Shown: in pieces, positions 5,216-60,994 of the stretch
How the letters are laid out: each line of letters begins with the position of its first letter
How positions within the stretch are numbered: the stretch's first letter is position 1
From: Cyanidioschyzon merolae
Lineage: Eukaryota
Assembly (NCBI GenBank): GCA_000091205.1
Contig: AP006495.2
Reading direction: 5' to 3' (one strand)
DNA length: 64,000 bases
Notes under the pieces: model-generated
What the model saw: the letters and a program-made list of their open reading frames with translations, nothing else
Told to the model about the DNA's origin: nothing
Database searches by the model: none
Position numbers and translations under genes: made by a program

Positions 5216-5404
5216 AAGCCGAGACCGTTGCTCACCCTTGTGGGATTGATCTCCGTACTGCGCACTGAAGACTCGACGCTGCAGTTGCAACCTGCAGTCC
5301 AGTTGACGAGACTTCGAATGGCGACGACTCGGCTATGGCGGATCAATGCGCCGATGGGCGCGGCGCTCGACGGCCGCGCTAGACCGCCTCTTCTTCCAGG
5401 TGCT

Positions 5405-5740
5405 GCAGCAGCAGTGAAGATGCCCTGAGAGCGATCAAGCAGAACTCGGCACACGAGGGCATCGAGGTCGATGCACTGGTCCCTCTACGCAGTAACATTC
5501 AATCATGAAGCTCCTGCAGCAGCAGTGAAGATGCCTGGAGAGCGATCAAGCAGAATTCGGCGCACGAGGGCATCGGGGTCGATGCACTGGTCCCTCTACG
5601 CAGTAACATTGAACCATGAAGCTCCTGCAGCAGCAGTGAAGATGCCTGGAGAGCGATCAAGCAGAACTCGGCACACGAGGGCATCGAGGTCGATGCACTG
5701 GTCCCTCTACGCAGTAACATTGAATCATGAAGCTCTGGCA
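5405..5740. repeat. Minisatellite, 111-bp unit x 3 (plus partial)
   Basis: Unit gcagcagcagtgaagatgcc..gcagtaacattcaatcatgaagctcctg recurs at 5405, 5516 and 5627 with about 5 substitutions per unit. It produces the spurious 37-aa periodic ORFs 5471..5959(+) and 5499..5741(-). Confidence 0.85.
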
Positions 5741-10450: not shown

Positions 10451-11145
10451 AAAAGTCTTTATCATGTAAGGTACGAGCGCTTGTAATTGAGGATTCCAGC
10501 CCGACGCAAGTGCCTCCCGTACGCAGCTCAGTTAGCGCGCGCTACGGCAGAATGTCGCGAGAAGAGCGTCTTATGTGCAGAACGAATTTGAGACAGGGCT
10601 TGCAGGCGTCTTTCACTGGTCTGAAATCGTCTGACGGGAGGCGATCAGCATCGGGACCGGCGGCAGCATCGTATCCGCTTTCATCGACGTATCCGCAACG
10701 GCCTGCGTCTTTGAGAAAGCATGCCTGAAGTGCGCATCGGTTGAGCGTCGCAGCTGCGACACCGCACCATTTCCCGCCTATCTGCTGCTTCCACTGGTGA
10801 TGCTTGCGTGGCGAGTGCGTTTTCCGCGAGCTCCGATGCGCGTTCTGCGTCCTGCGCGACTCTCGTTACTAGTGTTTGCGTTACAGGCGAGTTAGAGAAC
10901 CGAAACGATTGCTCGATCTTCCAAATAAAGAAGAATGCAATACTACCTACAATTCCTGCCGATCTATCGCAGAAAAACGCGGACACGTTTATGATAACGT
11001 CGAACTGACTATTGCGGCTTTGCGCTGTTGAGCGAGGAGCGCATGCAGCGACTAAAGTGCTCGCCACATCGATGAACTGGAGACAGCTCTATCGTCCATA
11101 CACCCCGGATGCGCTCTGCGCTCAATATGGTCAATGCGGTCGACA

Positions 11146-11450
11146 GGATACCTGCTAGACTCGTCTTGACTCGATATGCCAATAACTGCGAGACAGGTAT
11201 CCTATCTAAAAAATACGATATTCGCGGTGGAGGTCCACGCTTGCCAGGATACCTGCTAGATTCGTCTTGACTCGATATGCCAGTGACTGCGAGACAGGTA
11301 TCCTATCTAAAAAATACGATATTCGCGGTGGAGGTCCACGCTTGCCAGGATACCTGCTAGATTCGTCTTGACTCGATATGCCAGTGACTGCGAGACAGGT
11401 ATTCAATCTAAAGAATACGATGTTCGCGACGGGGCTCTGCCCTTGAAATC
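11146..11450. repeat. Minisatellite, 101-bp unit x 3, each unit bounded by a 9-bp inverted repeat (ggatacctg ... caggtatcc)
   Basis: Units begin at 11146, 11247 and 11348 (ggatacctgctagaytcgtcttgactcgatatgcca..). The third unit is diverged at its 3' end. Confidence 0.85.
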
Positions 11451-12366
11451 TCCTCAGACTCAGCATCTTCTCCACGCACGGAGACTGGGCCAAAGCCAGC
11501 ATAGCGCTGAAACGCCAGTCTATAGTGTGGAATCCCTGATTTGATGACCCGTAGCGTTCAAGTATTCCGGGAAACCGAATCGATGCATCAACCCTGCGTC
11601 TTCCAAGAGGCTTGGCGACCGCTTCATCTTGCCAATGACGCTTTGATGCTGCTGCCTGCATGCGCCTGTTGACGTTGCGTACACGCGTGATGCACCCAGG
11701 CCGTCTACAACCGCTGACAGACGAACAGGGAACCCGAATCGCGCAACGCGTACGGGTATCACGCGAGTCACCCACCGTGCCGCACCCTGTGCCGAAGCTC
11801 CGCCAGTCACCACTAGTGCGCTCCATCGGGGGTTTCGGATCGTTCGTTTCAGCACCCTGACGCCGATCGCCAGCCACGGCGCCTGTAGCGCCGCGACGGA
11901 CGCCACCCGGAGACAAGGATCCGCTTTCCCGTAGCCAAGTGAGCATCCTCAGCGATACCGTAAGCAGGTGCACTCCATCTGTTCAATCAATACATCATGG
12001 GTACGATCCAAGGAGTCCCCGCCAGCCCGCGCCTCGTCAGTGTTCGCAGAGGCGTCCGGCATACCCGGGATGTTTTTCATGGACAAAACGTTTACCCAGG
12101 CCAGCGTTCTCCGATTATGCGCATTTTGCTTCTCTTACTTTTTTGTGAGTGTTTTTTCAGTGCGAGGTGAAGTATCTATCAAACCCCCTACCTCCATGTT
12201 ACATTACCTATACGGCATACCAGGGATACCCATCGCATGCAACGCGTTCGACGGGAAGTGCGCTGAGATTGCAGCGCCAGACGCTGGGCGACAATGAAGG
12301 AACGTGTGGCTCCGCGCTGCTGCGCTTTACGGGGCTCTACGAGCAGCGCTCGCAAACCAAACACCC

Positions 12367-13362
12367 ATGACGCAGGCCAGTCACCAACCGTTGTTCTATG
12401 GACTCTCCGATGGGAATAGGATCCCATCTCTTGGACTCGGTACGTGGAAAGCAGAACCTGGCCAGATTGGGGAAGTCGTGCAGAAAGCGATCGAGCTTGG
12501 TTATCGTCATATTGACTGCGCCGCGGTTTACATGAACGAGAAGGAGATCGGCGGAGCCTTTCGTCGTGTATTCTCCAGTGGATACGTCAAAAGGGAGGAG
12601 CTATTCGTAACATCGAAACTGTGGAACACGTGTCACCGTCCAGAACACGTCGTTGAGGCCTGTAAACAGACGTTGGCAGACTTGCAGCTGGAATATCTCG
12701 ACCTGTACTTGATTCACTGGCCATTTGCATGGGAGTTCTGCGGCTCACCGCTGAATGAGAATACATGGAAAGGTGTCGACGGTGCTGGGAATATTCGTTT
12801 TGACCACGGTGTGACCTTGCAGCAGACCTGGGCTGCGATGGAATCACTTGTGGAGCAGGGGCTCGTTCGGAGTATCGGCGTCAGCAACTATGGCCTGGCG
12901 GAGCTGCATGATCTGCTGTCCTATGCGCGCATCAAGCCCGTGGTGAATCAGATTGAAGCACATCCATACAACTCCCGAGCCGAGCACGTCCAGGAGGCGA
13001 AAAGGATGGGGCTTCTCGTCGAAGCGTACGCACCGCTCGGATCCGGAACGCTCGGGATGTTGCGGGATCCAGCAATCCAGAACCTGGCGAAGAAGTATCA
13101 GGCAACGCCAGCTCAGATATGCTTGGCATGGAACATACAGCGTGGGTGTGTTGTCCTGCCCAAGTCTGTCTCTCCGGATCGCTTGCGGGAGAATCTGGAT
13201 GCCGTTCGCATTCTACTCGACGCTGCCGACATGGACACGTTGAACGGAATGGATCGGGCCCTGTTGGCCTGCGATATGCGCGTCTACTGGCCGTATCCGG
13301 TTCCAGAAGAGGCTGTTCGCCCGGAGCGCTTCCAAAACACATCTTCGAATGGACACTCGTGA
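12367..13362 (+). CDS. Aldo-keto reductase (AKR1-like NADPH-dependent oxidoreductase)
   Basis: IPSLGLGTWKAEPGQ, LGYRHIDCAAVYMNE, LYLIHWPFA, IGVSNY and the LPKS C-terminal NADP-binding motif. Frame opens at 12298 after a TGA; the track start at 12304 is GTG; first ATG at 12367. Confidence 0.9.
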   Translation: MTQASHQPLFYGLSDGNRIPSLGLGTWKAEPGQIGEVVQKAIELGYRHIDCAAVYMNEKEIGGAFRRVFSSGYVKREELFVTSKLWNTCHRPEHVVEACKQTLADLQLEYLDLYLIHWPFAWEFCGSPLNENTWKGVDGAGNIRFDHGVTLQQTWAAMESLVEQGLVRSIGVSNYGLAELHDLLSYARIKPVVNQIEAHPYNSRAEHVQEAKRMGLLVEAYAPLGSGTLGMLRDPAIQNLAKKYQATPAQICLAWNIQRGCVVLPKSVSPDRLRENLDAVRILLDAADMDTLNGMDRALLACDMRVYWPYPVPEEAVRPERFQNTSSNGHS

Positions 13363-25138: not shown

Positions 25139-25946
25139 CTAGGTCCCCGGGATTGTTTCCCTTTTCTCGTCGTTCCAGCGCTGCTCGGCGCGGGCAGCAA
25201 ACGCGCGAAGCACACCAGGAACTTCTTTCATGATCTTGCGCTCAACCAGCGCTATCGGGAAGAGGATCATCGGAACCACGTCCAGCGCATACTCCAAACG
25301 AGTCTCTGTCTCGCTGCGCGGCACGATTCTATACACCCCTTTCCAAGATGCAAAGTCCCTGCTCTCTCGTTTCGAGAACAGGAGCTCGCCCTGCTCTGGT
25401 AGCATCTCAACTTCCATAACGAGTCGCGATTGCAGTCTCAGACGACGGCTGACCCAGGCGACTTGCTCGAGCAGTCGTGACTCCGTGTCAAAGCGCGACG
25501 AGAGCATATGCGGTACAAACTCGATCATTTCATCGAATGCCGTCAGCACCGTCCAGACGTGTGCCTTAGGTGCGAAAACGTTTAGCGATCCAGTGATCAA
25601 TCGCCGACGCGAGTCCAGCGAACGCAGTTCGACTCGCAGCTCCTCAGGCGGATCTGTCCGAAGCTCCCGCACAAGCGTACCGACTTGTTCGGCATCAGCG
25701 CTTGCTTTTGCCGACAGTGCTGTTCCATGAGCGCGCGGGCTGCGCGGGCTGCGCGGACTCGGAGGCGAGCTCCGCAACCAGCTGCGCGGCGAAAGAACAA
25801 AACCCATGCTCTGGCGGGTATAGCAAGGACTGGCGTCTATCGGTGGTACCCCCTGTTTACTCACGAGCATATTGCCGGGAACTGGTGTTGAACAGAAACC
25901 GACTGCTCGGTCACTGCAAACGTCGGCACGCCGTCCCACCACCATC
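25139..25946 (-). CDS. SRPBCC (polyketide cyclase/START-like) domain protein with S/P/R-rich transit-peptide-like N-terminus
   Basis: Domain region ..LNVFAPKAHVWTVLTAFDEMIEFVPHMLSSRFDTESRLLEQVAWVSRRLRLQSRLVMEVEMLPEQGELLFSKRESRDFASWKGVYRIVP.. matches the Polyketide_cyc2 pattern. The track ORF begins at ATG 26075-26077, but its first 40 codons lie inside the terminal sequence of repeat copy A. The first ATG outside the element is at 25944-25946. Confidence 0.5.
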
Positions 25947-26209
25947 AACACGAACAGCAAACGCTTTTCAAAAGAAAAACGTTGCTGCCAGTGGTACAGT
26001 AGTGGCGAGTGTCCCGCCCTAGACAAGACGACGCCAACTGATGTGCAGACGCCTCGGAGGATTTCTCGGCGGGCCATGTACGAATGCTTTCAATCTTGTC
26101 TCATATAGTTCCACATTGAGAGGGTGTCCCACAAAGTTCTCTCCTGTCCACGATGGGGGCTTCTTTCCATCACCGCACATTTCCTTCCACTGCATGCGGC
26201 GTTCAAGTC

Positions 26210-26695
26210 TCAATGCACAAACGCTATGCGTTTCTCGCCATTCGTAGTTGTACTTTCTAATGCGAGCAATCCTCGAACTTTCGCCCTTCTTTCCATTTGC
26301 TCTTGCGTCAGCGCTCCGTACGTTTGTATATTACCAGGGCTCCGCTGGCACTTTTCTTTCTCGACGCTCTGAAGTGTACACCCCAGCTCGTGGCGTGTAT
26401 ACGATGTTCGGAACTTATCTACAGGTATCGTGACGAAACAGTGTGCGCACTCCTTGTACGTTCTTGTCGTCGGGGCTGGCGTCGTTCCTTTTTGGGTCAT
26501 CCAGCGCCCTGCCCAATAAGCTACTATGAGCCTCTGACTTTCATTCTCCTTCAGGGCGCTCAGCCGATTGAAAAAGTTCGCGAACGCGCGCCGCTTCCCA
26601 CAGTGTAGATTCATTCGCAATCGAGCCCACCGGGGCTTTGGAAATTCTTTTCGCAGCGCCTCCCAATGAGCAACGCGAACTTGCATGAATTTCAT
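26210..26695 (-). CDS. Element ORF4 (copy A), Cys-rich C-terminal module
   Basis: MKFMQVRVAHWEALRKEFPKPRWARLRMNLHCGKRRAFANFFNRLSALKENESQRLIVAYWAGRWMTQKGTTPAPTTRTYKECAHCFVTIPVDKFRTSYTRHELGCTLQSVEKEKCQRSPGNIQTYGAL... It is in the same frame as ORF3 and separated from it by a single TGA. Confidence 0.45.
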   Translation of the reverse strand: MKFMQVRVAHWEALRKEFPKPRWARLRMNLHCGKRRAFANFFNRLSALKENESQRLIVAYWAGRWMTQKGTTPAPTTRTYKECAHCFVTIPVDKFRTSYTRHELGCTLQSVEKEKCQRSPGNIQTYGALTQEQMERRAKVRGLLALESTTTNGEKRIAFVH

Positions 26696-26713
26696 AAAAG
26701 CTTGAAAGTCCGC

Positions 26714-27244
26714 TCATCGGATCGTCAGTGCGCTCAAAGCTGCCAGGTGATCCTTCATTCCTGCGTTCCATGTCTCAATTTTCTTCCTCGCATTCATTAT
26801 ACCGGATTCTCGAGAATATCTAGTTCTTGAGAACCTCAACAGACGCAAGTCGCTCTCACGTAAGTTGCCGTCAATGCCATCTACCGCACGCTTCGGTGCT
26901 GCGATGGTCATGATATTCGTATTCCCAGGGTCCGTGCCAACGACGAAGTCGTTATCCTGCACTTTCTATGTCGCAGGATCCGCCACCTTCTCATCTTCAT
27001 GCTTCGCCGCGTCAACGACGAGGCCCTTGTCATGCACCTCCTGTGTCGCGGGATCCGCCTCCTTCTCATCTTCATGCTTCACCGCCTCAACGACGAGGCC
27101 CTTCTCATGCACCTCCTGCGTCGCAGGATCCGCCTCTTTGATTTCTTCATCCTTCGTGACGGGCGCGGCCGAGGGCGGAACTGGACGATTTATCTTCAAC
27201 CGCCGATAGTGTACACACAAAGCTACTCCATCGGTTTCGATCAT
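26714..27244 (-). pseudogene. Element ORF3 (copy A), frameshifted inside the 69-bp repeat block; contains the RuvC-I-like motif
   Basis: Track ORFs 26966..27244 ([21 protein letters not shown]...EKVADPAT) and 26714..26962 (..[36 protein letters not shown]..) are the two halves of one reading frame that is intact in copies B and C. Copy A lost part of one repeat unit. Confidence 0.45.
26985..27140. repeat. In-frame 69-bp tandem repeat (23-aa [25 protein letters not shown]), about 2.3 units in copy A
   Basis: Same unit as at 32029-32212 (3 units) and 56542-56815 (4 units). Confidence 0.8.
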
Positions 27245-27456
27245 CCCCGTGGATACATTTCGCTTTCTGACTTTGAGACTTTTGAAATCGAAGATATTCT
27301 TTCAGTGCGTCTCATGGTTTTCGCCAGTGAAGTCCTCTCTGCTAACATTGAACTCGGGACTGATCTCCCTCATGATGCCGTAAAGGACGCCGGAATCGAT
27401 ACTCACAAAATGTGACTTGATGTTGCGCATTGGAACGACGTTGAAGCGCTTACCCA

Positions 27457-27942
27457 TTAGGATAGACTTCCATCTCTCTCACTCTTCATTTCCACCTTGC
27501 GTTCGAGCTCTCGGTCCAGAAACACGAAATATCGCAGGACAAGGCGATAGGATCTTTTCTTATCTTTTTTCAACTGTGATATCTTTTCTGCTGGATTCAC
27601 CAGCGCCAGCGCCGCACGGTGCTCTTGTATAACCGCACGGATGACAAAGACCTCATTCGTGCTCTGGTTTGACGCCTTCTCGTCGACGAATTCGATCTCA
27701 TGTTCATGCTTGCGATCGTTCCTTATGCCGTTGAGAATCGCCCGTATCCCTTTGCGAGACATGCCCTGGTAAAGTGCAAACACGGCGCGTATCATGAAAC
27801 GTTCGACGTTCATTGTCAAATGATTCTTCAGGTTCGTGACGCACTTCATCGCCCCGTATGCGTAGATATCCCAGTCACCCTTGTATCGAGTACCGTTGAT
27901 GCTGTAAAGGGTATTTCTCGTGGAGGGCGTGATTCCGCTCAT
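27457..27942 (-). CDS. Element ORF2 (copy A)
   Basis: 161-aa ORF MSGITPSTRNTLYSINGTRYKGDWDIYAYGAMKCVTNLKNHLTMNVERFMIRAVFALYQGMSRKGIRAILNGIRNDRKHEHEIEFVDEKASNQSTNEVFVIRAV..., 97-99% identical at protein level to copies B and C. It lies in the -1 frame relative to ORF1. Confidence 0.45.
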   Translation of the reverse strand: MSGITPSTRNTLYSINGTRYKGDWDIYAYGAMKCVTNLKNHLTMNVERFMIRAVFALYQGMSRKGIRAILNGIRNDRKHEHEIEFVDEKASNQSTNEVFVIRAVIQEHRAALALVNPAEKISQLKKDKKRSYRLVLRYFVFLDRELERKVEMKSERDGSLS

Positions 27943-28283
27943 TTTCCCTCCGCGCTTCCCGCTGTACCATGCATCAGGTATCGAAAAAACGTCTTGTCGA
28001 AGGATTCGCCCGGAATCTCGACCGTTTCCATGTGCGCCACATCGCGATACATCTCCCTCGCCAAATGCATCCGTCCTGACGACGCCTTGAGAATACTCTT
28101 GGAGTACGAGTCGACACGGTTCCTAATGGCCTCTCGCAACTTTTCCCTGTACGGATCCTTGACATGTCCAACAAGACAGGCTTTCACCGCCATCTCGGAG
28201 TACAGTTGTCTTTCTTGCCGCCTTCGACGTAGGGCCTCCCTCTTTTGCTTCATTTTTTCTTCTTGTTCTTCTGAACTCGGCAC
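27939..28283 (-). CDS. Element ORF1 (copy A; longest N-terminus of the three copies), basic N-terminal protein
   Basis: MPSSEEQEEKMKQKREALRRRRQERQLYSEMAVKACLVGHVKDPYREKLREAIRNRVDSYSKSILKASSGRMHLAREMYRDVAHMETVEIPGESFDKTFFRYLMHGTAGSAEGK. It ends on the conserved GGGAAAA-TGA junction and overlaps ORF2 by 4 nt. Confidence 0.45.
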   Translation of the reverse strand: MPSSEEQEEKMKQKREALRRRRQERQLYSEMAVKACLVGHVKDPYREKLREAIRNRVDSYSKSILKASSGRMHLAREMYRDVAHMETVEIPGESFDKTFFRYLMHGTAGSAEGK

Positions 28284-30962
28284 TGTTTCTTGTTTTTTTT
28301 TCTGGCAGCCAGCGACACTGAGCCTCAGGATCGTCGACTTGCTTTTTCATAACTTTCCTTTTTTAGGTTTTGTAAAAAGAACGCTTTTGAACGCTTCTGT
28401 TATAATCCGCAAAAAATCAATCGAACATTTTTACTTGAGGTTTGAAACACAAATGAAACCGAAAAACTGTACTTGGCTATGAACTCAACGAGAATACAAC
28501 TTTTACATCAGAGCTACACGCTAGAAATCACGATCACGTTTCCCGTCAACGGAGGCATACGCGTCGTGTCAGTTTACTGCCTGATCTCCCAGTTGCGCTC
28601 ACTGAGCGCGATGCGTGCACCTCGCCAGACGCCTCACCGATCGATGAAGGACACGTGTCCGACGCCGCATTGGCATATGCGTGTTCGCATCGCGTTGCAG
28701 CGGAAATAAAGTATCGTAGATCGGAAATTCACGCAGAGTAGTCTCTCGCTATAGGCTATGTCGCTGGTGCCGACGCTGCTACCCATCGCAGTACCGCCTT
28801 GACAGACATGTAGATGTTGGGGCCTTGCAAGAAACCCCTCGACGCTTCTATCAAAAGCGTAGCCATCGTAGTATCCTACGATCGTGCGGGTGAGGTATGC
28901 ATCACTCTACTCAATAGGAGTTTCGTTAGTTTTATTGATCGTAAACAAACAAGGCATAGTAGTGTTCCCGAACACGGATATGCGTTTAATCCCTGTGCTT
29001 GTTATGCAGGCTGCACGGACGCTGGGATGAGAAACTGGTTTGAGTTGTGCTTCTATCCTGCGTCATGGGCAGGTACTGATGGCAGGTCAAGTCATTGCCA
29101 TGCTGCCGTCGTTGTCCAAGTTATGATATCCGCTACTCTCTCGGATCCGGTGATCTCGGCAGAGGAATAGCGCACATGTAGCGTGCAGATGTATCACGGC
29201 GTTTGACTGACGCATCTCGCCTGGCACGTTCGAAGCATCCGCTAAAAGCGCATACTGTATTCTGGTCTATTCTCACCGTTTACTGGCAAGAGCCTAAAAT
29301 GTAGATAGCGGTGCAATCGTCAAACCGTGAACTTTTCCGTACCCCCGCCGCTCCATATGCTCCCGGATGCTCGGTGGCTGCCTGCTGGTTTCCCACTCTC
29401 ACCAGCAAAACTGCAGAACGGAAGGATTTTCTTTCTATCTTTTACCGTTCAATGACTGGAAACCGTTTCACGACCATGTAGGGTAAATTCATATCCACTC
29501 ACAGACGCCTCCCGGTCTTTTTGGACTGGCCAACAACTACTGTTTCCAACTTGTCCTTGGACAAGTTGGCAGTAGGAGGCTGTCCCACAAAGTCGGATCG
29601 CGTCAGCTCCGCCGGTCGCGCCTCCATCGTCATTCATCCGTTGATACTGATCGTGTTTTGTCTAAAACGCTTGTGATAGAGCTGAGGTCAAGAGGCGATC
29701 AATTTTGACCGACGCTATCACACGATCGGTACCAGAAGCTAAGGGCTGCAGCCGGCACCAGGTGCTCTTGTGACGGCATGCTGGCCGTGAAGAGTGCGTG
29801 ACGAAGCCGCATGGCACGCGAGGGTGTCCTAGTACATAAAACGAGGACGTGCCCGAGACGTTCAGATTCAGGGTAATGACGAGTCGCCGCTACGGTATTC
29901 TGGGAAAATAATCCGAGTGAGCTTTTGTTGCTCGAACATCGAGCACTATCACGAGTGTGGGTGCGTTTCACTGCACGGTTTGTAACGATCATAGAATCCA
30001 CCATCATCCAAAAGCGACGAAATGTCATACGCGCACCGGCCTCGTAAATCCAGGTCAGGACGTGCCCAGCAGCACGGAAACAAATTACGTGAACTGCTGT
30101 GCTTGCACCGAACGAAAGGAAGCATGCGTTTCCTCGACCGAAGATAGAGGCTTCCGAATTCATTCAGATACTGCCGATGTTTCGCCCGAACCCAGACCAC
30201 CATCTGCAATGTGCCCAAGACCATACACAGGATGCCTACGATTGTTTGCATCATCAAGTTAAGTCCTACTCACGCCAGTACCTCAGATATATAGTTCGGA
30301 CACGACACATGCTCGAAATGGAAGCCGTATGGGGTTTGCCGCAGGCGCCAACGGCACACCAGGTTGCCCGGCTCACCCGTGCCATTGCACACCACGCTTA
30401 TCCAAAACTCGGCTGCAACTGTAGCAGCGGCATCGCCAGCGTGTATGCATCGGCGCCATAGGATTTTTCATTGAGAAAACGTTTCCATTGACCATGGATC
30501 CCAGATTGCCGGATGGGCGCAGACATACGGGAAATCACTCTTTATGTTGTACCCTTATTTCTAGTTCCATTCGCGATTGTTCCTCTCGGATATACTGGTC
30601 ATTTTGCAGGTTATATCGTGCGCCTAGTGCGTGCCGTGCCTAATCCGCCTTGGCGCCTGAACCGCTGGAGCAGATATTTTTGGTAAAGACTGAACTGCTT
30701 TTCCGTACCGCTGAGGGTGTCGGATCAAGGAACGCTTCGTCTGATGTGGAGTAGGAGCACGTGATCATTCCGGGAGCCTGAAAACTGGGAGACATACGAT
30801 CTTTCTGCGACAGCGCGAAGCGATATACTAGGAGTGATCAACGACCAGGGTGATGCCCCGTCGCAGCATACCCGCTCCTAGTCCCAGAATAAAGTGCATT
30901 GCGAACGAGTTGCTCAGATTTAACCAAAGTACCTGTCACTGGGGCGGACATGAAGCGCAAGC

Positions 30963-31696
30963 TTGGGAACCTGTCTTCTTAAATATATCAAGGATCCGTA
31001 CAGGGAAAAGTTGCGAGAGGCCATTAGGAACCGTGTTTACTCGTACTCCAAGAGTATTCTCAAGGCGTCGTCAGGACTGATGCATTTGGCGAGGGAGATG
31101 TACCGCGACGTGGTGCACATGGAAACGGTCGAGATTCCTGGCGAGTTCGTCGACAAGACGTTTTTTCGATACCTGAAGCATGGTAGAGCGGGAAGCGCGG
31201 AGGGAAAATTGAGCGGGATCACGCCCTCCACGAAAAATATCCCTTTTACAGCTTCAAAGGTACTCGATACAAGGGTGACTGGGATATTCGCAGCTACGGG
31301 GCGATGAAGTGCGTCACGAACCTGAAGAATCATTTGACAATGAACGTCGAACGTTTCATGATACGCGCCGTGTTTGCACTTTACCAGGGCATGTCTCGCA
31401 AAGGGATACGGGCGATTCTCAACGGCATAAGGAACGATCGCAAGCATGAACATGAGATCGAATTCGTCGACGAGAAGGCGTCAAACCAGAGCACGAATGA
31501 GGTCTTTGTCATCCGTGCGGTTATACAAGAGCACCGTGCGGCGCTGGCGCTGGTGAATCCAGCAGAAAAGATATCACAGTTGAAAAAAGATAAGGAAAGA
31601 TCCTATCGCCTTGTCCTGCGCTATTTTCTGTTTCTGGACCGAGAGCTCGAACGCAAGGTGGAAATGAAGAGTGAGAGAGATGGAAGTCTATCCTAA
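30963..31696 (+). pseudogene. Element ORF1/ORF2 region (copy B), carrying two private 1-nt insertions
   Basis: Track ORFs 30963..31307 and 31304..31696. An extra t converts gggaaaatgagc to gggaaaattgagc, and a second indel near ..aaaaatatccctttt breaks ORF2 until MKCVTNL.. resumes the copy-C frame. Confidence 0.4.
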
Positions 31697-31908
31697 TGGG
31701 TAAGCGCTTCAACGTCGTTCCAATGCGCAACATCAAGTCACATTTTGTGAGTATCGATTCCGGCGTCCTTTACGGCATCATGAGGGAGATCAGTCCCGAG
31801 TTCAATGTTAGCAGAGAGGACTTCACTGGCGAAAACCATGAGACGCACTGAAAGAATATCTTCGATTTCAAAAGTCTCAAAGTCAGAAAGCGAAATGTAT
31901 CCACGGGG

Positions 31909-32439
31909 ATGATCGAAACCGATGGAGTAGCTTTGTGTGTACACTATCGGCGGTTGAAGATAAATCGTCCAGTTCCGCCCTCGGCCGCGCCCGTCACGAA
32001 GGATGAAGAAATCAAAGAGGCGGATCCTGCGACGCAGGAGGTGCATGAGAAGGGCCTCGTCGTTGACGCGGCGAAGCATGAAGATGAGAAGGAGGCGGAT
32101 CCTGCGACACAGGAGGTGCATGACAAGGGCCTCGTCGTTGACGCGGCGAAGCATGAAGATGAGAAGGAGGCGGATCCCGCGACACAGGAGGTGCATGGCA
32201 AGGGCCTCGTCGTTGGCACGGACCCTGGGAATACGAATATCATGACCATTGCAGCACCGAAGCGTGCGGTAGATGGCATTGACGGCAACTTACGTGAGAG
32301 CGACTTGCGTCTGTTGAGGTTCTCAAGAACTAGATATTCTCGAGAATCCGGTATAATGAATGCGAGGAAGAAAATTGAGACACGGAATGCAGGAATGAAG
32401 GATCACCTGGAAGCTTTGAGCGAGGTGACAAGCCGATGA
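31909..32439 (+). CDS. Element ORF3 (copy B): repeat-containing protein with RuvC-I-like motif
   Basis: ATG start; ..[10 protein letters not shown](E/D/G)KGLVV x3 ..[74 protein letters not shown], then TGA. Confidence 0.45.
32029..32212. repeat. In-frame 69-bp tandem repeat, 3 units (copy B)
   Basis: Direct reading; units start at 32029, 32098 and 32167. Confidence 0.8.
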
Positions 32440-32466
32440 GCGGACTTTGAAGCTTTTCTGAAATTC

Positions 32467-32943
32467 ATGCAAGTTCGCGTTGCTCATTGGGATGCGCTGT
32501 GGAAAGAGTACACCAAGCCCCGGTGGGCTCGATTGCGAATGAATCTACACTGTGGGAAGCGGCGCGCGTTCGCGAACTTTTTCAATCGGCTGAGCGCCCT
32601 GAAGGAGAATGAAAGTCAGAGGCTCATAGTAGCTTATTGGGCTGGGCGCTGGATGACCCAAAAAGGAACGACGCCAGCCCCGACGACAAGAACGTACAAG
32701 GAGTGCGCACACTGTTTCGTCACGATACCTGTAGATAAGTTCCGAACATCGTATACACGCCACGAGCTGGGGTGTACACTTCAGAGCGTCGAGAAAGGAA
32801 AGTGCCAGCGGAGCCCTGGTGATATACAAACGTACGGACCGCTGACCGAAGAGCAAATGGAAAGAAGGGCGAAAGTTCGAGGATTGCTCGCATTAGAAAG
32901 TACAACTACGAATGGCGAGAAACGCGTAGCGTTTGTGAATTGA
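32467..32943 (+). CDS. Element ORF4 (copy B)
   Basis: In frame with ORF3 across one TGA (32437-32439). ..KECAHCFVTIPVDKFRTSYTRHELGCTLQSVEKGKCQRSPGDIQTYGPLTEEQMERRAKVRGLLALESTTTNGEKRVAFVN. Confidence 0.45.
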   Translation: MQVRVAHWDALWKEYTKPRWARLRMNLHCGKRRAFANFFNRLSALKENESQRLIVAYWAGRWMTQKGTTPAPTTRTYKECAHCFVTIPVDKFRTSYTRHELGCTLQSVEKGKCQRSPGDIQTYGPLTEEQMERRAKVRGLLALESTTTNGEKRVAFVN

Positions 32944-33595
32944 GACTTGAACGCCGCATGCAGTGGAAGGAAATGTGCGGTGATGGAAAGAAGCTCCCAT
33001 CGTGGACAGGAGAGAACTTTGTGGGACACCCTCTCAATGTGGAACTATATGAGACAAGATTGAAAGCATTCGTACATGGCCCGCCGAGAAAGCCTCCGAG
33101 GCGTCTGCACATCAGTTGGCATCGTCTTGTCTAGGGCGGGACACTCGCCACTACTGTACCACTGGCAGCAACGTTTTTCTTTTGAAAAGCGTTTGCTGTC
33201 GGGGCTTCTCAAGGCCGAGCGCCCGGTCAACGTCGCGCTAGGCTGAACTCACTGACCTACGAGAGACGCCTTCCTAGTGTTCGTCTCGGTGCCTGGCGTT
33301 TGCATGGAACTTTCTCGACAGTCTATATCTGTTTCCACACTTTTACGACTGTTTACGTAGCCTTGACTGGTAGGTATCGGTAGCAGACTAAAACGCGGGT
33401 AGACTTTCGGTGACCGAATAGCCAAAGCGAGTCTGTCCTGTGCTAGGACGCTGTTGCTCGGCAGTCTCTACGCGACATAAGCGTCCCACTTGGTGGTCGT
33501 TGCTGCTGTTATTGTCGTGGTGTTGTTCTTGTTGGTGTCGGAGGTGGTAACTGGATCCGTGTCTCAGAACATTCCTGCCTCGCGGGTGCCACGAA

Positions 33596-36370
33596 ATGGC
33601 TTTCGTCAGCACTGTCCATTGCTCGAGGTTTCGCCTCTATGAGACTTGCGGAGCTCAACGCTTGATTGCGTTCTCCGTTCGGTGGCGGTCGTTGAAGCGC
33701 TGTCGCCTGAGACCTGTGTGCGAGTTGTCGAGCGATGGGCAGCTGGAGCCGCGGCGTAATCCGCTGAACAAAGCCGATGATTCGAGCGAAGGACAGGAAC
33801 GCTCTGAATCCGAGCGTTCGCAGTGGACTGAGGAAGCGCGCCGCCAGTGGCCCGAGTACGAGCCGGGCTTTGTGCCACGCTCCCGGAACGACCTGGACGC
33901 AGAAGAATACCCGACGAGCACCCCCGGCGACAGCAGTGGTGGTGCCGGCATCGCTGCGGGCTACGTGACAGGCTCCCGAGAGGTGATCCATGATCCCGTT
34001 GTCGTGTCGCGACGAGAGCTTCTCTACGCTGTGATTAGTATTGCAATAATCGTCACAGGCATTCTGGGGACAGTCTATCGTCGCTCGCTTCGCTGGTTTT
34101 CTCTAGCCGGTGTCTTTGGAAGCCTGCGACGTCGATACCCGCCACCGAACGCAAATCTGCGAGAGTTCATGATGGAGTGTGAAGCCGGCGCTGGACCGGT
34201 AGCACCGGCGCTGCAACACTGTTATTACATTCAGTGGCTGGGGGGTGCCTCCTCAGCACTTGAGGCTGCTCCTGGACATTGCACGGGGAAGAAGCTCCTC
34301 GTGCTGCTGCTTTGGCGAGCCACCGATTCGGGAACCGGGGCTGCCCTGGACGTTCTGGAAAACCTGCGGCCATATATGGACTTTATTGACATTGTCTGCA
34401 TGCACACGCCCAAATTCGATGGCGAACGCCCACCCCGCTTCGTTCAACTCTCTGCCAAGTACCATGAAATGAATTTTCCCTACGGAGCTGATGTCTCGCT
34501 TCGTCTGTGGCGGGATCTCGGAGTAACGGTCTGGCCCACTGCAGTTGTGCTTTCACCGCGTTCCAAACGAGTGTTGTTCGCCTTCGAGGGCTACCGTGCG
34601 CTCCCCCGAATTCTGCTATGTGTTCGCGCTGCTATCGACTTTTACTTTCCCCGGCGCGTGGCAACGCAACCGCCTCCGGAGCCTTCCTTGCGTTCGGAGC
34701 AGCTACCCTCTGGTAAGTCGGCTCGGCTTGGGGCGCACTCTGATGCGTTTCCTATATCCGCAGGTGCTTTGAGCGAGCTGCTGGAGAACAGACGGCGAGC
34801 GCTGGCGTCTGCTGAAGACACCGCTAGTCTCAAGGAGCAACGAAGCTCCACTCGTACTTCGAAGCGCAGTTCACGAAAGCGCGACAAGGCCTCCCCCGAA
34901 TCGCGACTACCAACCCGCTCGCCACTGCCTCCGCAGGACGTTTACGGGCGCCAGATACTCGCTCTCCTGGATACATCTCGCCAAGCGCTCGCTCTGCGGT
35001 TTCCCGGCAAATTAGACGTCCACGCTGAGAGCGATCGTCTGTTTATTGCGGATAGTGGCCACCACCGGATCCTGGTTACCAAACTCTCTGGTGAATTCAT
35101 CGAGCAGATTGGTGGACGAGAGGGTGCCGGCTTTCGAGACGGTACCTTCTCCGAGGCGCTTTTCCAGTACCCCCAGGGCCTAGTCTTTGATCCACTGGGA
35201 AATCGATTGATTGTGGCAGACTCGGGAAACAATGCACTGCGTATTGTCCGTTTCTCGGATGGAACTGTGAGCACCGCATCTGTGGCACCACTTGTCAAGG
35301 AGACCGACGTGCAAGGCGTCATGGAGCGCAGCATATCCATGCAGGACCGCGAATCCGGGCGGCACCGAGCGGCTGTCTCGGCAGCAGCAACAGAGCCACC
35401 TGCAGCGTCCGAAGGAACACCGTTCTGGGCCTGGCAACGACGCTGGTTCAAACCAGAACGAACGCGTCCTGCGGTGCAGCGTCAATACGAGCAGTTGCTC
35501 AGCGTTGCGGACGCCGATGTGCGCTTTGCCGAGGTCAACGACCGCTCCAACAACACGAGCAGCGCTGCCAAATCCAACAGCAAACCAGGAACCACACACC
35601 AAAGAACTGGCATCGCTGCAAATAGCTCGCCGCTCTCGCTAACACCGAGCCCACGCAGTCGTTTCCGACTTCCCTGGGATGTCAAGATGCATGCCGGATC
35701 CGTTTATGTGGCGGTTGCAGGATCGCACCAGATATGGCGTTTGGATTCTACCGGGATCCTCCGAGAATACCGCGGTAGTGGCAAACCAGGCCTCGTGGAT
35801 GATGCCGAGGGCTCCCGGGTTCCGGTGTCGTTTGCGGCGCCTCATGGTGTGTGCGTCCAGGGGACGTGTCTCTATGTCACAGACTCGGACTCGTCTACGG
35901 TTCGCGCCATCGACCTGCGCGCTCAGTGGACACGAACGATTGTAGGCGGCGACGTCTTCTTCCTCGAGAGCCTGTCAACGTTTGGCGACCGAGACGGCTG
36001 GGGCCGCGGCGGGCACCTCCAGTACCCGTGCGGGTGTTGTGCGCTTCCAGATGGTCAGATTCTGCTCGCAGATACGTTGAATCACAAGATCAAGGTATTG
36101 AACCTGGAGCTTCGAGACGTCCGAACGCTGGCTGGGTCCGGAGAGCCTGGGCTCCATGACGGTGCCAGCACACAGGCAGCTTTTTTTGCTCCACAGGGCA
36201 TCGCATACGATCCCACCGTTCGAATGGCGTATGTTGCGGACACGTACAATCACTGCATTCGACAAGTCGACGTTGCCACGGGCACGGTGCGCACGCTCAC
36301 CCTGACTCCTCCGGCGGTTTTGGAAGCGCTCGCTGCGCCCGCTGCGGAAACCTCACCCAACGGTCGATAG
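33596..36370 (+). CDS. NHL-repeat beta-propeller protein with N-terminal thioredoxin-like region (NHLRC2-like)
   Basis: Repeated NHL-type blades: LFIADSGHHRILV, LIVADSGNNALRIV, LYVTDSDSSTVRAID, ILLADTLNHKIKVLN, AYVADTYNHCIRQVD. Upstream Trx-like segment (KKLLVLLLWRATDSGTGAALDVLENL..VTVWPTAVVLSPRSKRVLFAFEGY). ATG at 33596; an internal later start is possible. Confidence 0.7.
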   Translation: MAFVSTVHCSRFRLYETCGAQRLIAFSVRWRSLKRCRLRPVCELSSDGQLEPRRNPLNKADDSSEGQERSESERSQWTEEARRQWPEYEPGFVPRSRNDLDAEEYPTSTPGDSSGGAGIAAGYVTGSREVIHDPVVVSRRELLYAVISIAIIVTGILGTVYRRSLRWFSLAGVFGSLRRRYPPPNANLREFMMECEAGAGPVAPALQHCYYIQWLGGASSALEAAPGHCTGKKLLVLLLWRATDSGTGAALDVLENLRPYMDFIDIVCMHTPKFDGERPPRFVQLSAKYHEMNFPYGADVSLRLWRDLGVTVWPTAVVLSPRSKRVLFAFEGYRALPRILLCVRAAIDFYFPRRVATQPPPEPSLRSEQLPSGKSARLGAHSDAFPISAGALSELLENRRRALASAEDTASLKEQRSSTRTSKRSSRKRDKASPESRLPTRSPLPPQDVYGRQILALLDTSRQALALRFPGKLDVHAESDRLFIADSGHHRILVTKLSGEFIEQIGGREGAGFRDGTFSEALFQYPQGLVFDPLGNRLIVADSGNNALRIVRFSDGTVSTASVAPLVKETDVQGVMERSISMQDRESGRHRAAVSAAATEPPAASEGTPFWAWQRRWFKPERTRPAVQRQYEQLLSVADADVRFAEVNDRSNNTSSAAKSNSKPGTTHQRTGIAANSSPLSLTPSPRSRFRLPWDVKMHAGSVYVAVAGSHQIWRLDSTGILREYRGSGKPGLVDDAEGSRVPVSFAAPHGVCVQGTCLYVTDSDSSTVRAIDLRAQWTRTIVGGDVFFLESLSTFGDRDGWGRGGHLQYPCGCCALPDGQILLADTLNHKIKVLNLELRDVRTLAGSGEPGLHDGASTQAAFFAPQGIAYDPTVRMAYVADTYNHCIRQVDVATGTVRTLTLTPPAVLEALAAPAAETSPNGR

Positions 36371-38362: not shown

Positions 38363-39060
38363 GCTTTCCTATAATAACGGGAATCATAATCCAATGTATA
38401 TGGACATGCCTCCGGTGCTCTGGTCTCCGCACTGCAGCACGCTCGAACCAAGTGCGCTTCAAGTTCTCGATCTCTCCGTTCCAAGCGACGCCAGGGCGCA
38501 GCGATTGACGCCGTCGGATGTACGAAGAAAAATGCTCCATATCGGCAGTTGAAGAATTGCTCACAAGCTTATGAAAAAATTCACTTATCATGCTGCGTCA
38601 GTGAATCGATCCCGTTCGGGAAACGATTTCCTATGCCTTTGCGGCGATCGACGAAACGTACTTCGACGCCTGCATGATACCTGTCACGGGATTTGCTCCC
38701 AAAGGCTCTCGTCTCTTCTGTTTCCATGAGAAAGCGTCTTGGACTCCGACTTGAGTCATCGCAGCGATCGCTTCTTGTGGAGCGTGCGTCACTGTTTTCC
38801 ACGAAGAAAGTGGATTCGTATCGACATTTCTCGACTTGTTCTCCAACCTTGATTCTTCTTTCGGTATCTGTTTCATCTTGGCCAACATCATGTTCCAGAA
38901 ATCATCTATCCGCTGAAAAACCATGAGCTCGTGTGTGCAGCTGACAGAGTACATGGCAAGCGGATCGCCCAAATCAGTACTGTGACCCATTGGTACGGCA
39001 CCTCGGGCACGTAAGCGGAGGCGGGAATCGGGGAGTCTTCTGTGCCCGCCACGGGCATGC

Positions 39061-39432
39061 AGCGAGCGATGTGGCAAGCGCTCACACGGCATGAGGCAGC
39101 CTCCGGAGGACGTCAAGGCGGACACACAGGAAAGTTCCTGACCACACTCAAGTAGCGAGCGATGTGGCAAGAGCTCACACGGCATGAGGCAGCCTCCGGA
39201 GGACGTCAAGGCGGACACACAGGAAAGTTCCTGACCACACTCAAGTAGCGAGCGATGTGGCAAGAGCTCACACGGCATGAGGCAGCCTCCGGAGGACGTC
39301 AAGGCGGACACACAGGAAAGTTCCTGACCACACTCAAGTAGCGAGCGATGTGGCAAGCACTCACACGGCATGAGGCAGCCTCCGGAGGACGTCAAGGCGG
39401 ACACACAGGAAAGTTCCTGACCACACTCAAGT
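39061..39432. repeat. Minisatellite, 93-bp unit x 4
   Basis: agcgagcgatgtggcaag(a/c)gctcacacggcatgaggcagcctccggaggacgtcaaggcggacacacaggaaagttcctgaccacactcaagt, with unit starts at 39061, 39154, 39247 and 39340. It explains the periodic 268-aa minus-strand ORF 38631..39437, which is an artefact. Confidence 0.85.
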
Positions 39433-39748
39433 GTCATCGCCGCGACAGGCGCACCGAGTGTCCATCCAAAGAAGCTTCAGTGAGCAAGCGCAACGTCGAT
39501 CGCAGCTTCCGCCTTTAGGTAAACAATGCGATAAAAAAGCAGCAGTCGGAAACAACGAGCATCGGCACGCTTTATCTGCTATGAGTGTCTATCGACAGTT
39601 GCTCATAGAGCTGGAGCCCCAGAAGAGACCGACGTTCCTAAAAGTTGGAGATAAGACGCGGGAAACCGTAGCAGTCGAAAAAAAGTTTCGCATACGCAGG
39701 TATTGAGGATAGCAAGAAGATGCCGCAAACACGAGGGCGTGCGTTCGG

Positions 39749-45126: not shown

Positions 45127-45360
45127 CTCCGTCAGCGCACTGAAGACCGTGTCCTGACGTCTGGCAACGTCCGTCTATTGGAGAACGTCGAATTTCGCCA
45201 TTCTCCCTACGTTCATGCTTTTGCCGATGCTGTCGGGATAGATCTGCATATCATTTCGCCGCAGGCTCCGTGGTTCAACCCCATCGAATCAGTATTTTTT
45301 ATGGTGAAACGGAATGATCGCTCCACTGGGCGAATAGCGGAAGCGTTCAGCACACGGTGA
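45127..45360 (+). pseudogene. Relic of a Tc1/mariner/IS630-superfamily DDE transposase (C-terminal fragment only)
   Basis: Open frame LRQRTEDRVLTSGNVRLLENVEFRHSPYVHAFADAVGIDLHIISPQAPWFNPIESVFFMVKRNDRS.. matches the canonical C-terminal ..G(V/I)KLLFLPPYSPDLNPIE.(L/V)W..LKR.. block. The frame is closed by stops at both ends after 78 codons. A (CA)n run at 45097-45118 lies immediately upstream. Confidence 0.45.
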
Positions 45361-48300
45361 CACACCCGGGCGCACGTCGTCTTTCTTGTGCAAGTCCTTC
45401 TCCAACCGGAAAGGTCGTCACCTAACGACATATACACGTGTATTCCATTTGAAGAAAGGAATATCCAAGGGAAAGGTATGGACGTGCGCGTCGAGGATCC
45501 TGGTGTGCCGTCATCACCAGGTAGAACAACAACCGAAAAACGAAGAAAATCCTCTTCTCGTCGATCATTGAGAGAGCGACGAAGAGCAGCTTACGACGAA
45601 GAAGAGGATGACCAGGAGAGATTGACGACAACAAACGTTTGCTCGACGTAACGATGACGAGACTGTAGTGGCAAAGCGAGCACGAGTTCGAGGACTCGCA
45701 GCAAAAGTGACTTTAGCCATCGTCAATGCACCCAGGGCGTTCGTGAACCGAGACTTGAACGCCGTCATCAATATCAGAAGATATGTGGTACTGAAGACGA
45801 AACCCGCGGAGCTGGCTTGATGTTATTTTATGGGGCAGCATCTCAGGCTCGAATTGTGCCTGGATGAATACTAGAACCGATAGAAGGCAGCCGGTCAAAA
45901 AATAGGCCGGGCGGCGTCTGCGAGTGAGTTTGTATTCACGCTCCATGGTCGTGAATCATTTCTCGTTCCACTGGCTTGTTGTTTTGAAGAATCAAGATGA
46001 TTCGCGACGCCCGCCAAAAAGGTGTATAACGTACCCCAAGTCACGAGCCAACGCTTACGCACGAGCCTCTACGCCTATCCATTCCATACATATGCAGTGG
46101 CCCAGTGATACATGCTTCAGGTTTTCGATCTCTCTGTTTCAAGGCGACTCGTGTGCGCAGCGATTCGTGCCACTGGTCTGAAGAGGAAACATAAAACGCG
46201 ATGCTTCCTTTTGACGACTCGTCCACAGGCAAATGCGGAACGGTCGCTGAACTTGTCAGGCCACGAAGCCGCTTCCGTGCGAAAGACCAATCCTGCTTTC
46301 GTTTCGAGCATAGGCGAAACGGCGCTTGACAACACCATGATAGCTCGCACAGCATAGACCGTGCGACGCCCTCATCTCTTCTGACTGCATGAAACTGGGA
46401 CTTCGACTCGGGCTTTCGTCATCGCAGCGATTGCGCCCAGTAGGGGAAGCGTAGAGAATTCGAGTTTGTTTGACTTTGTCTAGAGCCCGGATTTTCCTTT
46501 CGATCCTTGTTTCAGTATGAATGGGACTGCGCTCCACAAATCCATGATCCATTGGAACAGCATTCGCCTGCGTTTGCAGCGTACATCGTACTCGCTCATG
46601 GAATCGCCCAGAACACGCCAGTACTGGTAGGGTGCGGCATCGAGCGCGAAACCAGCAGGAAAACATCTGAGACAGCCTTCTGGTATCGCCAAGAGCATGT
46701 ACCGAGCGATGGAGCAAGTGTTCGCACGCCACAATGCGGCTTTCAGAGGAGCACGAGGCGTCGTTCGGGACGCACCGGAAAACCTGACTACCGGCAAGTG
46801 TACCTGCTTCGAGGGATGCACAGAGGCTGTTCACAGAGAAGATGCGCGTGCCTGGCGAAAGACTTCTAGATTGCAACTCCCACGTCTGCGAGGAATTTTT
46901 CTACGAGTTCTACTGCGGCGGCCTCGAGAATTCAACGCTGCTATGAGCATTCTTCGCCCGTCGACGACGGATCTGGAGGCATACAGCGGAACGGAGTCAT
47001 GAAAACCGGACACACGGGAAAGGCAATGGACGCTGTCGCAGAAAGACCGCGTAAAGGCTGGTACTGAATGGTCGTAAGAAAATATTCAATCCTGTCCGTT
47101 TACGCCCGTATTCGCGGACCTGGTTCATGTGCTTTCGCAATGGGTGTCACGAAGACTCGCCATGTCGTTTCAATCAATTCCTCACGATCAAGTAGGACGG
47201 ATGATCCTCGTCAGATTCTCCAGCTATGCAAGGACCGACGATAACCCTGCCGGTTGGCTCGTGAAATCCACGCCCGTGTCCAGATTCCACAAACACCAGA
47301 CTAGTATATATCAAGACCGATCCGTGAATCATTGGGGGCTCCTGGCCGACACAGAGCGCTCACGAGCCCACTGGATACGGCGGTGCCGACCTCGTTGTGC
47401 GGAAGCACGACCGCGTTCTTCGCCCCGCTACCGAATCCACAGACCTAATCGAATGCAAACGAAATGCTCACGAGCATCCAAATGACTTTTTCGAGTCTTT
47501 GACGGGCGATCGACACGGCTCCTGCTGCGCATCCCGGATCGATGCGGGGAGGTGCTGGGCAGCGAGCCTTGCAAAGGTTCGGGTTACCGGGGCGATAGAC
47601 TGCACCTCTTGCCTAGATGTTGCTGTGTTGCACCGTCTCCAGAACAAAGCTGACCTGCAGCATTGTTTATAATCTATCGATCGCTGGGTCTACCAGTAAC
47701 CCGGTCAGTTTCAAGACGCTCGTAGCGTTTCGCCTTCGACACGAGGCACACAGCCTCGTACGTTGTCGTACGGAAGCGCAGCAGCATCGACTTTCCGCAG
47801 CGACCGCCGACTGCTTTGTACCAGGATGACCACCACAGCTCCATTGCTTCAGCAGAACGCCTCGATAACGAGACTCGACTACTCGATATCGTCTATGGGC
47901 ATGGTGCATCGATTCGATAGCAAGAAAAGTCAGACGTTGGTTGAGATATCGACAGCGTCTGGTGTACCCGTGCATCCGGGTATGGCGTGCCTCGCACCCG
48001 CAGCGTATCATGCAGTACTCGTGCAATGCGTATTCGCTGGCACCTCAGCACTGAACGCGACTACGACACCTTTGCCTCTGCCTGGGGACACCCACGCTCG
48101 CTGATGGTCTAGAGTATAGCGTGAATCCAACCGAGCGCTCAGATTCAAGCGTAACAGCGACAGTGTTTCGGATGCGCTCCGGCGTGCGACGGGATGCACC
48201 GTGCAGGACGCAAGCGCAAGAGAAACGCATCCGTTCGCATGAAGTATCCGTTGGATGGATTGCTGTTCGCATTCATATCTCAATAGATGCATCGACGAAG

Positions 48301-56221: not shown

Positions 56222-56433
56222 TGGGTAAGCGCTTCAACGTCGTTCCAATGCGCAACATCAAGTCACATTTTGTGAGTATCGACTCTGGCGTCTTTTGCAG
56301 CATCATGAGCGAGATCAGTCCTGAGTTCGATGTTAGCAGAGAGGACTTCACTGGCGAAAACCATGAGACGCACTGAAAGAATATCTTCGATTTCAAAAGT
56401 CTCAAAGTCAGAAAGCGAAATGTATCCACGGGG

Positions 56434-60953: not shown

Positions 60954-60994
<41 letters not shown>

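Follow-up and report, generated by a model that had tools for sequence, protein, structure and literature searches.

Fanzors are eukaryotic RNA-guided nucleases, and three copies of one such element (A on the minus strand of the contig; B and C on its plus strand) were located by repeat finding and alignment in a stretch of 64,000 nucleotides (nt) of Cyanidioschyzon merolae DNA (contig AP006495.2), the whole of which is termed here ‘the window’. All three are dead, non-autonomous Fanzor1 copies (TnpB-like, of the OMEGA class). Their family has been described before; what is new here is the exact right end (RE) of the element, the hairpin that terminates it, and its placement with respect to host genes. 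Across related loci, copies occur solely in intergenic spacers that contain the 5' end of a gene, and an RE that faces a gene start nearly abuts the start codon, which the left end (LE) does not.

The closest described system is CMe-1A, a Fanzor1 element of C. merolae present in about 150 copies of ~3 kb, for which no terminal inverted repeats (TIRs) were reported, target site duplications (TSDs) were left undetermined, and the 5' part was found to be held in common with a separate short repeat (Bao & Jurka 2013; PMC3627910). The window copies are of this CMe-1 type, an assignment that follows the published description. Like CMe-1A, they reside in a Cyanidiales host, measure ~2.7-3 kb, belong to a multi-copy family whose members are ~70-85% alike, have neither TIRs nor TSDs, carry a single Fanzor1 open reading frame (ORF) that is intact in some copies, and share their 5' part with a separate short repeat; the unrelated flanks of the copies, the 339 related stretches described below and the synteny of the window with Cyanidiococcus agree with the assignment. 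In contrast, the published account gives neither exact ends nor a terminal hairpin nor any relation to host genes, all of which are added here, and no literature description was found of the terminal hairpin and exact ends of CMe-1-type Fanzors or of their placement near start codons.

The characterised TnpB and Fanzor OMEGA systems (ISDra2 TnpB; SpuFz1 and ApmFz2) share with this family the hallmarks of a RuvC nuclease and a conserved 3' end that is structured up to the RE, whereas the window copies are pseudogenes, known here from sequence alone. In the literature searched, no report was found of how OMEGA systems are placed against host start codons.

For such placement, parallels exist among other mobile elements. 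Ty3, Tf1, TRE5-A of Dictyostelium, and the P and Mu elements are promoter-proximal integrators, whose insertions, like those of the present family, cluster at the 5' ends of genes and avoid other DNA in a gene-dense genome; the defining property of that class, an enrichment at gene 5' ends over random placement, was found in the Fanzor family as well. Those elements, however, are retroelements or DDE transposons with tethering factors and TSDs, whereas here it is a polar RE that lies beside the ATG. ISAba1 and IS10 are bacterial insertion sequences with outward-facing promoters. As in the present case, an element end abuts a gene start and expression would rely on transcription leaving the element; the differences are that the host here is a eukaryote, that the promoter is inferred, and that the RNA leaving the element would at the same time serve as the scaffold of the guide RNA.

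Right ends and the starts of host genes

Copies A and B are 97% alike across 1961 nt and form an inverted repeat, and copy C is 94-97% like both. The three copies and the host genes around them are as follows.

25954-28613, minus strand: copy A core (5' leader, degenerate Fanzor1 frame and tail; native N-terminus at an ATG near 28350)
30464-33199, plus strand: copy B (a ~500 bp 5' module, 30464-30963, fused to the Fanzor frame, 30964-33199)
54998-57805, plus strand: copy C (architecture and junction as in B; Fanzor-homologous part 55492-57804)
25139-25945, minus strand: SRPBCC (Polyketide_cyc) host gene, counted from the first non-element ATG
33596-36370, plus strand: NHL-repeat host gene, downstream of copy B
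58029-61214, plus strand: alanyl-tRNA synthetase (AlaRS) host gene, downstream of copy C
53544-54875, minus strand: CDP-diacylglycerol synthase CdsA (CTP_transf_1), with its start towards copy C, ~122 nt from the 5' end of the latter

The RE, as defined by loss of similarity, lies at 25954 (minus strand) in copy A, at 33199 in copy B and at 57804/5 in copy C. Alignments of the three copies and of 47 non-redundant relatives lose similarity at one base, the last of GAAAAGCGTTTGCTGT: the relatives can be aligned up to that identical base and diverge completely beyond it, and the repeat blocks found in an independent all-against-all comparison stop within ~10-30 nt of the same termini. From the RE to the start codon of the co-oriented downstream gene there are 8 nt for copy A (SRPBCC ATG, 25945-25943), 396 nt for copy B (NHL ATG, 33596) and 223-224 nt for copy C (AlaRS ATG, 58029). 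The original prediction, made on the same DNA, had placed all three copies upstream of and co-oriented with these three host genes, and had done so correctly; its distances of ~400 bp for copy B and ~230 bp for copy C agree with the measured ones, and its figures for copy A (terminus at ~25955, ATG at 25946, 11 bp between them) were exact to within a few bases.

The co-orientation by itself, from which a bias towards sense insertion had been suggested, is in the window purely a matter of geometry. Copies A and B are an inverted pair within a single head-to-head spacer (SRPBCC on the minus strand, NHL on the plus strand), and copy C lies in another (CdsA minus, AlaRS plus). In a head-to-head spacer, an element is bound to lie upstream of a gene and to point in that gene's direction, whichever way round it is inserted, so that ‘three of three’ carries no weight.

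The evidence for non-random placement comes instead from relatives. A scan of JGI metagenome contigs recovered 339 related stretches, from which 80 loci were kept; at least some of the contigs derive from the species of the window itself (genes 99-100% identical). After the RE had been placed by alignment of the tail, the element masked and duplicate loci removed, 37 distinct loci with a downstream host ORF were available. For the calling of host ORFs, long ORFs served to train a model of in-frame hexamers, which recovers the known genes of the window and replaced a codon-usage caller that had proved too weak. The downstream ORF is co-oriented with the element at 26 loci and opposite at 11, and a co-oriented ATG is met within 50 nt of the RE at 11 of the 37 loci, within 100 nt at 15, within 150 nt at 18 and within 250 nt at 21. 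The 18 loci within 150 nt compare with an expectation of ~5-10%, and nulls of 5%, 10% and 20% return p values from 2e-14 to 9e-5, at or below ~1e-9 for the expectation of ~5-10%; these analytic nulls (5-20%), together with the position within the spacer, were added to a control drawn from element-free spacers of the same contigs, which is small and biased to convergent spacers. In the subset of 29 loci with a clean terminal hairpin, 18 are co-oriented and 14 fall within 150 nt. Where the RE faces the gene, the median distance to the start is ~60-75 nt, and the proteins encoded downstream are mutually unrelated products of ordinary housekeeping genes. Examples of the distance from RE to ATG are:

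Monothiol glutaredoxin: 4 nt
KTI12: 8 nt
eIF5B: 44 nt
RsmB-type methyltransferase: 61 nt
ATP synthase beta: 87 nt
FtsZ: 97 nt
DEAD_2 helicase: 98 nt
Phosphoglucomutase: 106 nt
Alpha-tubulin: 151 nt

Three of these junctions were read directly and their start codons verified: the alpha-tubulin start (MREVISLHIGQAG) begins 151 nt past the hairpin, the eIF5B start lies 44 nt past it, with stop codons just upstream, and the methionine of KTI12 falls on position 1 of the Pfam model.

The two sides of the element behave differently. At the 19 loci for which both neighbouring genes were called, the RE side is the shorter in 15 (medians of 61 vs 718 nt), and repeat-defined left ends give an LE-side median of ~300-500 nt. 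The RE side takes up less than 5% of the non-element spacer at 8 of 13 co-oriented loci, a non-uniform distribution (Kolmogorov-Smirnov p = 1.6e-4). By type, the 19 spacers comprise 8 head-to-head, 6 tandem with the element in sense, 5 tandem with it in antisense and none tail-to-tail, an absence whose probability by chance is 0.75^19 = 0.004. Exclusion from tail-to-tail spacers in turn predicts co-orientation at ~2:1, and the 26:11 split is thus no independent evidence of a sense bias. The tabulation of distance and orientation across the 37 metagenome relatives therefore upholds one half of the earlier suggestion of promoter- or 5' untranslated region (UTR)-directed integration, or of selection for outward read-through: the positional bias towards gene 5' ends is present (18/37 within 150 nt, 0/19 convergent), but a bias of orientation beyond geometry is not apparent (6:5 in tandem spacers).

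Accounts of the placement

The best explanation, to which a probability of roughly 60% is assigned, is a joint one: dead Fanzor1 copies whose tails are transcribed outward into host genes, combined with promoter-proximal integration. The guide RNA of characterised Fanzor and TnpB systems runs outward across the RE, the flank becoming the guide (PMC10530073, PMC10432273), and by analogy an outward transcription unit would be expected at the RE in the CMe-1-type family. A host core promoter and a 5' UTR would not fit into the 8-44 nt that separate the RE from the KTI12 and eIF5B starts, which suggests that transcription of the genes beside an RE probably begins within the element or passes through it. 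Such outward transcription from the tail, omega-RNA-like in kind, would supply the host gene with a promoter or leader, and a sense insertion beside an ATG would keep the gene expressed and survive, while an equally close antisense or terminator-side insertion would not. Integration itself would favour promoter-proximal DNA, or possibly single-stranded DNA at active promoters, a route that would suit an element with hairpin ends and neither TIRs nor TSDs.

The joint explanation has consequences for both partners. The RE, and with it the expected end of the guide RNA, lies 8-150 nt from the starts of tubulin, eIF5B, FtsZ, ATP synthase beta, KTI12 and other genes, which implies that a transposon tail is probably the source of the transcripts of such genes or is crossed by them, and that the natural guides of CMe-1-type Fanzors would be host 5' UTRs and start regions. 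Cyanidioschyzon is transformable by homologous recombination, so that promoter activity, guide RNA production and homing are all directly testable in the organism itself.

Several observations weigh on the other side. The promoter activity proposed for the tail is deduced from geometry; the tail, examined for conservation as a promoter signature, is no more conserved than the rest of the element, and no promoter motif was identified in it. An orientation preference beyond geometry is, as noted above, not apparent, and copies B and C, at 396 and 223 nt from their ATGs, leave space in which native promoters may survive. The hexamer gene calls are crude, and some first ATGs are possibly placed too far upstream. 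Of the element’s two ends, the left is subfamily-specific and poorly defined, and at the right the covariation of the hairpin is weak, with three pairs changing on both sides. Finally, it would take empty sites to tell targeting from survivorship, and none were recovered: contigs with a 99%-identical AlaRS gene begin inside the tail of copy C, and the intergenic DNA of Cyanidiococcus is unalignable. Three independent metagenome assemblies of the AlaRS locus (L083-L085, positions 1-80) break inside that tail, from which it follows that the insertion is present in those populations and that the repeat limits assembly.

The competitor that survives best, although it is distinctly less probable than the joint explanation, dispenses with targeting: copies would insert anywhere, persist only in promoter-containing spacers, and later be brought closer to the ATG by deletion between it and the RE as the genome is streamlined. 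Cyanidiophyceae genomes are extremely reduced (PMC13353863), and the non-element DNA between CdsA and AlaRS amounts to ~345 nt here as against 1298 nt in Cyanidiococcus. The young copies B and C still stand off from their ATGs by the distances given above and many older relatives are closer, as progressive deletion would have it, and antisense copies are about as frequent as sense ones in tandem spacers. However, copy A is also young and already lies 8 nt from its ATG, and the deletions would have had to stop exactly at the RE and at the ATG in many independent loci. Survivorship, moreover, would still require expression supplied by the tail, and so differs from the joint explanation in the targeting step only.

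More doubtful again is the notion of self-protecting homing, in which the element would be kept in place by Fanzor-guided cleavage of empty alleles, while its tail, acting also as a mobile promoter or leader, would hinder its loss. The 15-20 nt that adjoin the RE would act as the guide; where 0-50 nt separate the RE from the ATG, cleavage would strike the 5' UTR, the start or the first codons, error-prone repair would be harmful in a housekeeping gene, and only precise copying-back would survive. Homing endonucleases and engineered gene drives likewise target essential, conserved sequence.

Chance placement in a compact genome, where any intergenic insertion must be near some gene, is very unlikely. 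It would account for the co-orientation seen in the two head-to-head spacers of the window, which is automatic there, and for the 26:11 split, which is what the exclusion of convergent spacers predicts; it would not account for the excess of starts within 150 nt, for the skew of within-spacer position to the RE side, for a median of ~61 nt on that side against ~300-700 nt on the LE side, or for the missing convergent contexts. Scarcely any credence attaches to movement of the element and its downstream gene as a composite unit or segmental duplication: A and B do form an inverted repeat, and 5' flanks are common within subfamilies (one with a Steroid_dh gene fragment), but a different single housekeeping gene follows downstream in every case, the similarity between paralogues stops at the RE, and the gene order of the window is kept in Cyanidiococcus, which has no copy of the element at these positions.

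The tail ATG and the start of the SRPBCC gene

One further reading concerns copy A, whose tail contains an ATG from which the downstream gene might appear to begin:

26075-26077, minus strand: ATG within the tail, opening an over-long ORF (25139-26077); not conserved in relatives

The long ORF reads MARREILRGVCTSVGVVLSRAGHSPLLYHWQQRFSFEKRLL. That it begins inside the element was rightly noted in the original prediction, which went on to propose that the tail ATG could have been exapted as a start codon or 5' exon, giving the SRPBCC protein an element-derived N-terminus. This proposal did not survive and is highly improbable. The frame is indeed open from 26077 into the gene, and the JGI pipeline calls a 312-aa product (P0056) from the same tail start. 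The tail ATG, however, is limited to the window copies (within CATGG twice and GATGG once); none of 32 relatives has an ATG at the equivalent position, 22 of them reading GGTGG, and the equivalent ORF runs for 56 codons in copy B and for 59 in copy C. The Cyanidiococcus orthologue (CCYA09G2725; 263 aa, 68% identity) aligns from residue 45 of the long ORF and has no such N-terminal extension, and in the 44 additional codons the Fanzor tail is translated in a frame other than its own.

At the DNA level, the ATGCACGTTTTGGTTGGG of the orthologue aligns with TCGTGTTGATGGTGGTGGGA in the window, which begins directly at the RE, so that the RE would sit at about the ancestral start of the gene. The present start of SRPBCC is most likely at 25945; longest-ORF calling created the chimeric N-terminus as an artefact. 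The same artefact is a warning for annotation, since the longest ORF beside such a copy gains a false element-derived N-terminus, as happened both here and in the JGI call.

On the opposite side of copy A, the bases just 5' of the core boundary (28614-28621) end in GGTGCACG, and the start of the Cyanidiococcus SRPBCC gene (L082, 9995-10010) reads GGTATGCACG/TTTTGG. Joined together, the sequences on either side of copy A would give back something like a start; this 5' flank recurs at other loci, and hence the resemblance is possibly a coincidence.

Identity, termini and surroundings of the element

The element is polar, with a 5' leader, a single Fanzor frame of ~750 codons and a non-coding tail of ~65 nt between the Fanzor stop codon and the RE, and its 2.66-kb core contains the Fanzor frame only. 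Translation in three frames joins into one product of ~750 residues that includes FVH*DLNAA. A protein search returned 55 relatives, all except three known solely from JGI metagenomes, among them an intact ORF of 752 aa (P0001) with 60% identity. The hallmarks of Fanzors are DPG in RuvC-I and a relocated glutamate six residues before a zinc-finger motif (Yoon et al. 2023; PMC10711439). The window copies retain DPG, within what is in relatives the intact motif VGADPGNTNI (ADPGNTNI). Relatives read IPVDEFRTSYTHHELGC, which places the relocated RuvC-II glutamate six residues ahead of HH...C...C; in the window copies this residue is mutated (VDKFRTS, vs VDEFRTS, as in VDEFRTSYTHH, in relatives). 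For RuvC-III, whose motif in Fanzor1 is RDxNAAxNI, relatives read FVNRDFNAAINIRKC (NRDFNAAINI) and the window copies H-TGA-DLNAACSG. The stop codons in question, given in the coordinates of copy C, are:

57541-57543, plus strand: in-frame TGA in place of the RuvC-III arginine, common to A, B and C
56374-56376, plus strand: further common TGA (Trp in relatives)
57037-57039, plus strand: further common TGA (Gly in relatives)

Several frameshifts are also common to the three copies, and these shared stops and frameshifts, together with the lost catalytic glutamate, indicate that A, B and C were copied from an already defective template. Copy B has in addition a Fanzor frame without roughly its first 40-70 codons. 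When a profile of the family was compared with the PDB, the sole match was the Fanzor1 of Spizellomyces (SpuFz1, 8GKH; E = 0.0035), aligned over the DP and DEYKTS motifs. Pfam gave no significant family for the element ORFs or the intact relatives, just a weak precomputed match to DUF8286, and an AlphaFold model of P0001 built from a shallow alignment (predicted local distance difference test score, pLDDT, of 36) was too poor for a fold search. The linker before RuvC-I carries tandem repeats of 75 nt (25 aa), whose copy number also varies among relatives:

26932-27156, minus strand: copy A, ~3 repeats
31998-32297, plus strand: copy B, ~4 repeats
56523-56897, plus strand: copy C, ~5 repeats

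The two ends of the core are marked by potential secondary structures:

25954-25988, minus strand: terminal hairpin of copy A (GGCAGCAACGTTTTTC-TTTT-GAAAAGCGTTTGCTGT; the 3' arm is the element terminus; z = -5.1)
28595-28609, minus strand: palindrome GCGCTCA-N-TGAGCGC at the conserved left boundary of the copy A core

The hairpin, of 18-19 bp, occupies the last ~35 nt of the element, up to the very base of the RE. All 35 sequences fold into it (mean z = -2.3), with two stem types among the tails (TTTTTC/GAAAAG and GTTCGA/TCGAAC). In a covariance-model alignment, which chiefly realigned hairpin subfamily 1, 84.8% of cells pair, vs 46-54% in slid controls; RNAalifold on the 35 tails yielded hardly any consensus, since the hairpins of the two subfamilies do not line up with each other, and an Rfam scan of the entire window gave no match. 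On these sequence comparisons the hairpin is conserved, with weak formal support from covariation. A depletion of ATG in the last 130 nt (19 observed vs 64 expected from composition) is not usable, the sequences being homologous and GAT and CAT equally rare.

At the other end, the conserved 5' core begins at ~28613 with the palindrome GCGCTCAGTGAGCGC, and the DNA 5' of that boundary in copy A is subfamily-specific. The ~500 bp 5' module of copies B and C (starting at 30464 and 54998) is found alone at other loci. When every 5' region was compared, by gapped local alignment, with the reverse-complemented 3' ends, no TIR scored above chance. Nor was a target or target-adjacent motif common to the copies found immediately outside the left end, where subfamily-specific extensions flank the core boundary.

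In some respects these ends recall Helitrons and the IS200/IS605 elements (the HUH class): no TIRs or TSDs, a 3' hairpin, a palindrome at the 5' boundary of the core, 5' regions that vary, and what may be a captured piece of a gene. Both assignments were rejected. Neither a Rep/helicase nor a Y1 transposase was found in the element; its termini are not of the form 5'-TC...CTRR-3' that is typical of Helitrons, which insert between A and T, ending instead in TTTGCTGT or TTGATGGTG with varied bases after the RE, and an origin of the IS200/IS605 type is opposed by the absence of the Y1 HUH transposase TnpA from the 2.66-kb core (the flanks were not systematically searched) and of a common target motif at the left end.

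G and T prevail in the first 12 nt past the RE in related loci, where GGTG recurs 4-10 nt downstream of the RE, and in one subfamily the terminus itself ends in TTGATGGTG; CGCTGCC(G/A)T directly follows the RE in three unrelated loci. These patterns may represent a target preference.

The gene order across the window is conserved with Cyanidiococcus yangmingshanensis, whose counterparts of the host genes are 68-74% identical (SRPBCC 68%, AlaRS 74%). The DNA 5' of copy A (28614-30333) is collinear with the 5' DNA of Fanzor copies at two other loci (L071, 2292-3986, and L030). Within it, 29949-30257 (minus strand) holds a C-terminal fragment of a gene like 3-oxo-5-alpha-steroid dehydrogenase, which may have been captured from the host or have arisen by 5' transduction. 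Other traces of mobile elements and of their pieces in the window are:

29501-29626, minus strand: isolated fragment of the element tail between A and B (element positions ~2486-2612)
12073-12208, minus strand: lone match to the 5' leader of the element (~52-184), just upstream of an aldo-keto reductase gene (12304-13362)
45178-45360, plus strand: remnant of a DDE_3 transposase of the Tc1/mariner type (Pfam E = 3.7e-5)
45736-45804, plus strand: second, older Fanzor relic, which still reads NRDLNAVINI

The DDE_3 relic lies ~380 nt upstream of the older Fanzor relic, a pairing that fits the reported association of Fanzor1 with Mariner/Tc1 elements. Tandem repeats also occur in or near other ORFs, at 39049-39513 (unit of 93 nt), 5398-5740 (111 nt) and 11137-11439 (101 nt), and the C-terminal region of AlaRS (~60890-60930) contains a run of 12 glutamine codons, a 99%-identical metagenome protein (P0059) being five residues shorter.

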